Made by a program: the position numbers and the translations under genes
Shown: piece by piece, positions 43,522 to 45,443 of the stretch
How positions within the stretch are numbered: position 1 is the first letter of the stretch
How the letters are laid out: each line of letters begins with the position of its first letter
Notes under the pieces: generated by a model
The model's database searches: none
What the model was told of the DNA's origin: nothing
Seen by the model: only the letters and a program-made list of their open reading frames with translations
Sequence record: OR327751.1
Source: Escherichia phage Ecp_YSF
DNA: 53,268 bases
Reading direction: 5' to 3' (one strand)

Positions 43522-43542
43522 TAACAACTTTTGGAGGTATTT

Positions 43543-44064
43543 ATGTTTTACACTGGTGTGGGAAGTCGTGAAACTCCCGAGCATATTTGCGAACTGCTGA
43601 CTAAAGTAGCTTCCAAACTGGCCAGGCTTGGCTGGGTAGTTCGTACGGGAGGTGCTCAAGGTGCTGACGAAGCATTCCTGGCTGGCTGCAACGGAAGGAC
43701 AGAGAACTTTATACCTTGGAATGGTTTTGGAAGTTATGGTGGCGTAGTACCGGACCTGAATCGAAATTGGGAATACCTGCAAAGTGTTGAAAACGTAAAC
43801 CCGCTAATTCACAAGAAAGAAACCAGAAACCTCGACAAATACAGAGGATTTTGGAAACTGCAGGCACGAAATGTTAGTCAGGTACTTGGGCTTAACTTAG
43901 ACACTCCATCCAAGTTCTGTATCTTGTACGCTCTGACAACATCAACTGGTGTGAGCGGAGGCACCAACACTGCATATCAGGTTGCAGTGCAGTCTGGAAT
44001 ACCTTGTTTTAACCTGTTTGACCCTGCTGTAGTAGCAAGGTTTGAGAAATTTGTATCTGAGTGA
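43543..44064 (+). CDS. DprA/Smf-like Rossmann (SLOG superfamily) domain protein
   Basis: YTGVGSRETP...LARLGWVVRTGGAQGADEAF matches the GSR...sGGa.G.D..a pattern. ATG 43543 follows GGAGG. Confidence 0.5.
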   Translation: MFYTGVGSRETPEHICELLTKVASKLARLGWVVRTGGAQGADEAFLAGCNGRTENFIPWNGFGSYGGVVPDLNRNWEYLQSVENVNPLIHKKETRNLDKYRGFWKLQARNVSQVLGLNLDTPSKFCILYALTTSTGVSGGTNTAYQVAVQSGIPCFNLFDPAVVARFEKFVSE

Positions 44065-44095: not shown

Positions 44096-44118
44096 TAATC
44101 CAATTAGTTGGATATGAG
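44096..44118 (+). promoter_or_regulatory. phage RNA polymerase promoter P5
   Basis: Core ATTAGTTGGATATGAG matches at 14 of 16 positions. Confidence 0.6.
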
Positions 44119-44189
44119 GGACAAAGCTATTCCGTGGTTAGCAATGTCACTGAAACTTAAACTGTAATTAACTTAAGAGAATCTTAATC

Positions 44190-44564
44190 ATGGCACAATA
44201 TTCAGATGTAAACACTGGCATTATCGGTCCTAACGGCTTCAAGAAAGACCCAAAACATCCTGACATTCGTGGGCGTATTAACGTTGACGGAATCTGGTAT
44301 TGGGTATCTGGCTGGAATAAGCAAGCAAATGGTAATGAATTTACCTCACTTGCATTAACCATCATGACCCAAGAACAGGTTGATGAAATGATGCGTAAGC
44401 GTGAAGAGAAAGCTAAAGCCAAAGCTCAACCTCAAGCTGCCGCTCAACAGCAACAGCAACGCCAGCAACCTTCTGCGCAACAGCAAGCTCCTACTCAACA
44501 ACAGCAGCAGAGCAACTATAACCCGAACGAGCCGAAAGATTTCGACGACGACATTCCGTTCTAA
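44190..44564 (+). CDS. small protein with a Gln-rich linker and an E. coli SSB-type C-terminal tip (DFDDDIPF)
   Basis: The last 8 residues, DFDDDIPF, equal the E. coli SSB C-terminus as I recall it. They follow the low-complexity stretch QPQAAAQQQQQRQQPSAQQQAPTQQQQQ. Confidence 0.65.
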   Translation: MAQYSDVNTGIIGPNGFKKDPKHPDIRGRINVDGIWYWVSGWNKQANGNEFTSLALTIMTQEQVDEMMRKREEKAKAKAQPQAAAQQQQQRQQPSAQQQAPTQQQQQSNYNPNEPKDFDDDIPF

Positions 44565-44576
44565 TGGAGATGCCCT

Positions 44577-44696
44577 ATGAAAATTCTATGTTTTATGGGG
44601 CTACATAATTGGGAAATTTCACACGAAAACGATTATGTAACCATTTGGGTTTGCAAACACTGTGCAGTAATGCGTGAGGAATATCATGGGAGCTAG
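44577..44696 (+). CDS. 39-aa zinc-ribbon-like peptide (not in the ORF track)
   Basis: MKILCFMGLHNWEISHENDYVTIWVCKHCAVMREEYHGS. GGAG lies 8 nt upstream. Confidence 0.4.
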   Translation: MKILCFMGLHNWEISHENDYVTIWVCKHCAVMREEYHGS

Positions 44697-45417: not shown

Positions 45418-45443
45418 GAGGCCATTCCACTTCGAGTGGCCTC
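45418..45443 (+). terminator. putative terminator hairpin
   Basis: GAGGCCATTC-CACTTC-GAGTGGCCTC (10 bp) followed by GATTAATTATT. Confidence 0.5.

Follow-up and report, generated by a model that had tools for sequence, protein, structure and literature searches.

The gene at positions 44190-44564 of the Escherichia phage Ecp_YSF sequence (OR327751.1; 53,268 nucleotides, referred to below in its entirety as the window) is likely to encode the phage's own analogue of the single-stranded DNA-binding (SSB) proteins, with a core that departs from the oligonucleotide/oligosaccharide-binding (OB) fold, is probably PC4-like, and is joined to a tail that would dock the partners of the host SSB. The 124-aa product (MAQYSDVNTG...NEPKDFDDDIPF*) consists of a conserved N-terminal domain, a disordered linker and an acidic C-terminal tip, and the annotated family to which it belongs is very large, so that the protein is no peculiarity of the window phage.

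The window genome belongs to Carltongylesvirus (Chaseviridae), with Escherichia phage flopper, ST32, and phiEcoM-GJ1 as its kin (identity over the region up to 94%). The gene is ordinary within this phage group and its SSB label is already in GenBank: it is called "ssDNA-binding protein" in Carltongylesvirus records, the putative SSB annotation in the group dates at least to the phiEcoM-GJ1 record EF460875, and the ST32 paper merely lists the gene among the replication genes (PMC6266442). The profile of PHROG 7364, whose label 'single strand DNA binding protein' is itself an annotation, matches residues 1-91 (E 3.4e-42) and suggests the same assignment. The closest relative carries a T7-like gene set (family-A DNA polymerase, primase/helicase, 5'-3' exonuclease, ligase, and single-subunit RNA polymerase [RNAP]), and no second SSB is annotated in that genome. 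A tblastn search of the window with E. coli SSB matched the tip alone and recovered no further SSB.

The N-terminal domain was modelled by AlphaFold from a 60-sequence alignment (residues 1-80; mean predicted local distance difference test [pLDDT], 94.5; predicted template modelling score [pTM], 0.75) as four antiparallel strands followed by one helix at residues 61-79. The OB topology is a five-strand barrel with a helix between strands 3 and 4; the modelled strand region, at ~55 aa, is too short for it, and four strands with a terminal helix are predicted in place of the barrel. Profile comparisons were in agreement with the model. The window protein has no real match in Pfam, including none to the Pfam SSB family, and an hhalign comparison of the family profile with the OB domain of E. 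coli SSB (residues 1-115) returned a probability of 0.2%. Foldseek found nothing significant for the domain in the PDB, an OB fold was absent from the results of every fold search made, and sequence searches of the PDB, in which both the protein and the family profile served as queries, matched SSB through the tip only. A conventional OB-fold SSB is rejected on the basis of these profile searches, the hhalign comparison, the model topology and the fold searches, and the view taken in a sequence-only reading of this DNA, that the first ~75 aa do not form a standard OB fold, is borne out by the structure prediction it had proposed. The NCBIfam SSB models all scored far below their cutoffs (TIGR00621: score, 23.4 bits; cutoff, 53.95) and covered just the linker and tip (residues ~40-124), and because of this the SSB label already in the databases may rest on the tail. 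No variation is seen at G10, P24, G28, and W42 in 60 diverse members of the family, and in the helix of the Chaseviridae homologues V64 and D65 are invariant and M67 almost so. By analogy with PC4-like proteins, the conserved beta core of residues 1-60 would be an ssDNA-binding-type unit and the helix is likely a dimerisation element (PMC7549692). Residues 25-59 (44262-44366; VDGKEYWTSRWN) resemble the B subunit of Shiga toxin 2 (VDGIWYWVSGWN) weakly and non-significantly (E 0.1-0.8), which was taken as chance.

The predicted order of strands and helix corresponds to the topology by which PC4-like proteins are defined (PMC7549692), a superfamily that takes in PC4/Sub1, the T5 PC4-like protein, YdbC/DUF2128, Whirly, and Pur-alpha. 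The window protein gave no match to PF02229 (PC4) in hmmscan, and evidence for a relationship comes from profile-profile comparison, in which the family profile aligned with a PC4 profile (built mostly from vertebrate sequences, and narrower than ideal) at a score of 26.0 and 62% probability, residues 23-61 lying on PC4 core positions 12-50. Two hundred column shuffles of the PC4 profile scored on average 9.8 +/- 2.3 (maximum, 18.2) and the reversed profile 12.2. The register did not change when all 152 domains were used (24.9) or when the profile was confined to the helix-less subset (26.3, 71%), and the helix-bearing subset by itself was weaker (19.1, 10%); for scores of 24.9-26.3 the probabilities were 58-71%, and the shuffle maxima (13.8-18.2) were all lower. 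In this register HPD-x-x-G is paired with VRDFKG, W-Y-W with E-Y-W, and F-T-S-L with G-I-S-L, and W38 of the family is aligned with PC4 W89, a DNA-stacking residue (PMC4350104). Remote homology of the N-terminal domain to PC4-like proteins is probable on this evidence, if by no means assured.

A second, likely relationship is that with DUF736 (PF05284), the label that JGI gives to many relatives ('DUF736 family'). The family member P0076 scored 24.7 bits against a gathering cutoff of 22.1, nine of 60 members matched at E<1, and the window protein itself had no match. Because just distant relatives reach DUF736, a link at the superfamily level seems likely and membership of the Pfam family itself does not. 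Typical DUF736 proteins are ~100 aa long, have further strands at the N-terminus, and are not known to carry an SSB tip. In conjugative elements of the ICEMlSym type, DUF736 belongs to the core genes (PMC8627217), and no description of its function or structure was found in the searchable literature.

Beyond the helix, residues 80-124 are predicted to be disordered (pLDDT 32-44, below 50), and the protein ends ...NYNPNEPKDFDDDIPF*. Two further statements of the sequence-only reading hold: that a Q/P/A-rich disordered linker, which includes the stretch QPQAAAQQQQQRQQPSAQQQAPTQQQQQ, precedes the tip, and that the last eight residues are those of E. coli SSB, as seen in the ssb gene of the E. coli K-12 MG1655 genome record (...SNEPPMDFDDDIPF) and likewise in PDB chains 1eqq, 4mz9, and 7f2n. 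This resemblance is no chance match, since five tip residues (F118, D119, I122, P123, and F124; F-D-x-x-I-P-F) are invariant in 19 Chaseviridae homologues in which the linker varies in length, and 96 of 149 more distant representatives end in PF. Inside the otherwise variable linker of the Klebsiella, Acinetobacter, and Pseudomonas phage homologues a GPRTL[GS] motif is conserved (L005:5001-5336, L007:4992-5300, L134:501-824, L136:501-827, and L137:492-794), perhaps as another short docking motif.

The sequence of the tip follows the host. In three Acinetobacter phages the homologue has the end PADLDDDLPF behind linkers that differ, and when reference genomes were scanned for genes that terminate in DLDDDLPF*, the great majority of those recovered came from Acinetobacter and other Moraxellaceae; the gene with that end is the canonical OB-fold SSB in both A. 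baylyi and A. calcoaceticus (...APADLDDDLPF). The closely related, syntenic homologues of Klebsiella and Pseudomonas phages end in PPM[DN]FDDDIPF, and that of Vibrio phage QH in EPPMDFDDDIPF. Synonymous codon differences occur at 4/9 of the identical tail residues between the window and E. coli ssb, and at 7/10 between an Acinetobacter phage and its host. A recent capture of the 3' end of a host ssb gene was rejected because of these differences, and because the codons differ the identity of the tip is seen as kept at the protein level. Taken together, the sequences indicate that the tip is under selection and matched to the host SSB, and this tracking of the host, the best evidence here, suggests that the tip serves proteins that recognise the host SSB tip; the phage's own replisome could also be a user.

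An exhaustive profile search (E <= 1e-3; clusters defined at 50% identity) found the domain in 1,975 cluster representatives, most of 70-140 aa, with a consensus of ~YDNTNxGxLFKNDRKExDxHPDYxGxINVxGVEYWLSGWxKxxxxGxxFLSL. In a census of the 149 best representatives, from which the 1,158-aa repeat protein P0036 was left out, an acidic ...[ILVM]-P-[FWY] end was present in 87, a variant acidic-aromatic end in 18, and the motif followed by an extension in six; an acidic ...[ILV]PF-type end was found in ~75%, and many of the remaining representatives appear truncated. The family has two subtypes, one with a helix after strand 4, as in the window, and a larger one in which strand 4 runs straight into the linker. 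Tandem two-domain versions also exist (e.g., Vibrio phage QH), a hint, by analogy with PC4-like proteins, whose dimers form either between molecules or within one (PMC7549692), that the unit may function as a dimer. A tblastn search of 72,556 plasmids with a typical helix-less member gave no match. The metagenomic P0036 contains 21 tandem degenerate units of ~52 aa (...HHGYSRRQTRHTPGYWYSSWLQQTSD...) that match positions 23-71 of the domain profile, and is probably a repeat or assembly artefact.

Using tblastn, the domain was found in 136 isolated phage genomes, where it is mostly annotated as SSB, spanning Chaseviridae, the Vibrio podophages VP2, VP5, and QH, and phages of Klebsiella, Acinetobacter, Pseudomonas, Salmonella, and Burkholderia. 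The homologue adjoins DNA polymerase I in Klebsiella phage K21lambda1, Vibrio phage QH, and two Acinetobacter phages, Bhz20 and 2AB-P, where it lies inside a block ordered helicase/primase-polymerase-X-PurZ/DatZ (X being the homologue), and the same polymerase-X-adenylosuccinate synthetase order occurs in the short flanks available for Pseudomonas phage PSA28. Among temperate phages, three of four long contigs have the helix-less form directly after an ERF gene and a YqaJ exonuclease or HNH endonuclease gene, and in two of those three NinB comes next downstream or one gene further on; a phage SSB gene usually occupies the slot after ERF and the exonuclease. On a fifth contig the family member is surrounded by a helicase-rich prophage region. 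At four loci from Klebsiella, Vibrio QH, Acinetobacter, and Pseudomonas phages (L005, L006, L007, and L136), the homologue lies between or beside DNA polymerase I and genes that carry the annotations PurZ-type adenylosuccinate synthetase and dATP triphosphohydrolase, and these clusters resemble the one found in 2-aminoadenine (Z-genome) phages. Two temperate-phage contigs encode the Acb2/Tad1 hairpin domain (anti-CBASS/Thoeris sponge family) near a family member (L010:9518-9874 and L011:5379-5603), on the second of which it is the very next gene.

In the arrangement we infer, residues ~5-60 would form a four-stranded sheet that is followed by the helix, a PC4-like fold with a distant tie to DUF736. 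By analogy, this core would pair into dimers and bind ssDNA on the sheet, with W36, Y37, W38, W42, K18, R27, and R29 as the candidate aromatic and basic residues, and the ~37-residue linker would present DFDDDIPF as a copy of the docking tip of the host SSB. As phage DNA replicates and recombines, single-stranded DNA coated with the phage protein would then recruit proteins that have pockets for the SSB C-terminal tip (SSB-Ct). These would be host enzymes of genome maintenance and perhaps also the T7-like polymerase and the primase-helicase that the phage itself encodes. Several observations weigh against this reading. The three-dimensional similarity scores of the modelled domain are marginal, with PC4-like hits interspersed with propeller blades and NTF2 folds. 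Some E. coli phage variants have DFDSEIPF or FDENIPF in place of the host tip, and two near-identical Chaseviridae homologues (P0013, contig L012:1501-1905 and 2037-2375; P0014) run past ...IPF with APIGLQEGRRYLHCI, so that the tip is buried under a 15-aa extension and the 3' end of the gene holds a different DNA segment. The P0013 contig parts from the window right at this 3' end and has a different 112-aa open reading frame (ORF) next, which suggests that the masking extension arose by mobile insertion.

An alternative that overlaps with this reading is a recombination-specific ssDNA chaperone, an accessory factor instead of the replicative SSB, which would shield ssDNA or present it to annealing or mediator proteins such as ERF-type single-strand annealing proteins, NinB/Orf, and the DprA-like protein, with the tip handing over to these or to host RecA loaders. 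The temperate contigs, in which the gene follows ERF and an exonuclease with NinB nearby, and the weakly DprA/SLOG-like gene immediately upstream in the window are as it would predict, and the T5 PC4-like protein has been proposed to act in recombination-dependent replication (PMC7549692; PMC8545432). Virulent Z-genome phages, by contrast, have the gene directly beside the polymerase with no recombinase annotated in the flanks examined, and the Chaseviridae relatives are without another SSB candidate. A restriction to recombination is rather unlikely, and since canonical SSBs serve both processes the recombination and replicative roles are not exclusive.

A decoy, which would present free SSB-Ct tips that soak up ExoI, RecQ, PriA, Pol III chi and others and thereby disable host replication, repair, or SSB-dependent defences, with DNA binding secondary or absent, has in its favour a tip that is identical to that of the host and tracks it, as a decoy would also need, and the small size of the gene and its place in the early region, with probable host-takeover genes around it and a phage promoter-like motif in front. 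It is less probable still, as a decoy needs neither a conserved aromatic-rich domain of the nucleic-acid-binding type kept over ~2,000 clusters nor the SSB-like layout of domain, linker, and tip; the gene is, moreover, embedded in replication modules and in the recombinase slot, and no other SSB is available for the T7-like replisome of the phage. Of the two proposals in the sequence-only reading, the first was a minimal phage SSB working with host partners and the second a decoy: the conserved domain, the replication and recombination contexts, the failure to find another SSB, and the host-matched tip favour the first, and a pure decoy finds no support. Some competition with the host SSB is possible.

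As a very improbable alternative, the protein could be an ssDNA-binding transcription cofactor for the phage single-subunit RNAP or for host RNAP, after the manner of PC4, N4 SSB, or LUZ7 Drc. PC4-like proteins work in transcription (PMC7549692), and N4-like phages have in Drc a small RNAP cofactor that binds ssDNA (PMC7145618). The window gene is part of the early region and comes downstream of the gene for the phage RNAP, yet the family also occurs in phages whose examined context is a DNA replication or recombination module, and the host-matched tip points to the SSB interactome. To our knowledge, T7-type RNAPs need no such cofactor. A divergent version of a conventional OB-fold SSB, as the database label 'single-stranded DNA-binding protein' and the weak NCBIfam matches might imply, is scarcely credible given that those matches are confined to the linker and tip and that the model topology, hhalign, and the fold searches all oppose it.

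The favoured SSB analogue shares with E. coli SSB (PF00436/TIGR00621) the three-part layout of a DNA-binding core, a disordered low-complexity linker, and an acidic tip, including identity of the last eight residues and variation of the tip by host clade as in bacterial SSBs, whereas its core is non-OB and about half the size and its linker is rich in Q/A/P rather than G/Q/P. There are clear precedents in phages, namely the PC4-like SSB of T5 and the acidic-tailed SSBs of T7 and T4. The T5 protein (PDB 4bg7), proposed as the replicative and recombination SSB of T5-like phages, has no detectable direct sequence similarity to the window family, which is tied to DUF736 and not to Pfam PC4. Compared by description, its C-terminus is made up of extra helices that extend the dimer interface, and that description mentions no disordered linker or SSB tip (PMC7549692). 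T7 gp2.5 and T4 gp32 are likewise phage SSBs that contact replisome proteins via an acidic C-terminal tail; their tails, however, are phage-specific and no copies of the tip found on the host SSB, and neither protein was among the fold-search matches. The core of T4 gp32 is an OB fold. For gp2.5, the OB-fold core and the role of the tail, which ends in Phe, are described in the DARNA preprint. The likeness to the T7 system extends to the relatives of the window phage, with their T7-like polymerase, primase-helicase, and RNAP. AcrIIA22 (PDB 7jta), a helix-less PC4-like nickase and anti-CRISPR, gave a marginal similarity score and has no linker or tip. As to DUF736, distant family members reach it and both groups are carried on mobile elements with ssDNA stages.

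The searchable literature (queried for DFDDDIPF in phages, Chaseviridae SSB, DUF736, PC4-like proteins with an SSB tail, and SSB-Ct mimicry) contained no characterisation of the family, nor was the combination of a non-OB PC4-like/DUF736-type core, a bacterial-style linker and tip, the size of the family, and host-tracking of the tip found there. The chances seem evenly balanced that this is a very large class of phage SSBs (~2,000 clusters), with a PC4-like/DUF736-type sheet instead of an OB fold and a host-matched tip, that has gone unrecognised in the literature, and that by extension DUF736 proteins are ssDNA-binding and PC4-like. Nothing would be overturned, as both acidic-tailed phage SSBs and a PC4-like phage SSB (T5) are known already. 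If true, the three-part SSB design has been rebuilt in phages on a different and much smaller core, with the tip kept in step with the host SSB; the same tip on two unrelated cores would provide a natural experiment on its function, and the core a minimal scaffold for recombineering and for studies of SSB partners. A function would also follow for many proteins now called 'hypothetical', 'DUF736', or, by annotation transfer, 'SSB'. The family proteins are plausible triggers of defences that sense SSB, such as Retron-Eco8 and DARNA.

Table 1. Positions in the window of the SSB-like gene, its predicted parts, and nearby expression signals
Feature	Position	Strand	Remarks
Complete SSB-like gene	44190..44564	+	ATG start, stop codon included; 124 aa (ORF list, translation)
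Residues 1-60, four-stranded beta core (strands 9-14, 26-32, 35-46, 49-58)	44190..44369	+	AlphaFold2 model
Residues 61-79, C-terminal alpha-helix	44370..44426	+	Present in both models
Residues 80-116, predicted disordered Q/P/A-rich linker	44427..44537	+	Low pLDDT; length and sequence vary among close homologues
Residues 117-124, DFDDDIPF, SSB-Ct-type docking tip	44538..44561	+	Identical to E. coli SSB C-terminus
Promoter-like motif ATTAGTTGGATATGA, perfect copy	44103..44117	+	Between upstream gene stop (44064) and ATG
Copies of ATTAGTTGGAT[A/G]TGA	37035, 39376, 40271, 41157, 44103-44117, 47993, 48321, 50256	+	
Copy of ATTAGTTGGAT[A/G]TGA	38730	-	
Shine-Dalgarno-like TAAGAG	44174..44179	+	10 nt 5' of ATG; weak, inferred from sequence
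Terminator-like hairpin	45418..45443	+	Consensus scan; count no higher than chance expectation

The motif ATTAGTTGGAT[A/G]TGA occurs in nine copies in the window (<=2 mismatches) against 0.45 expected, a count reached in 0/100 shuffles; all lie within 37-50 kb, eight of them on the + strand, and (A)AC often comes just before the motif. These repeats are probably an early/middle promoter set of the phage RNAP, and it is plausible, judging from the motif, that the SSB-like gene has its own phage promoter, as the sequence-only reading stated, specific for the encoded single-subunit RNAP. A scan for sigma-70 promoters around the gene gave nothing that exceeds chance. The terminator-like hairpin may end a transcription unit made up of the SSB-like gene, a 39-aa ORF, and a 245-aa ORF.

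The upstream neighbour (43531-44064, + strand) encodes 177 aa that are weakly similar to DprA/SLOG (PF02481; E 6e-4, short of the cutoff), and its counterpart in phage flopper is annotated as a 'DprA-like DNA recombination-mediator protein'; this neighbour and the SSB-like gene may work together as a pair. Directly 3' of the SSB-like gene, the 39-aa ORF (44577-44696, + strand; MKILCFMGLHNWEISHENDYVTIWVCKHCAVMREEYHGS) has a C...H...CxxC pattern and a weak match to the DUF1660 'prophage protein' family (E 0.015), and overlaps the start of the 245-aa ORF.
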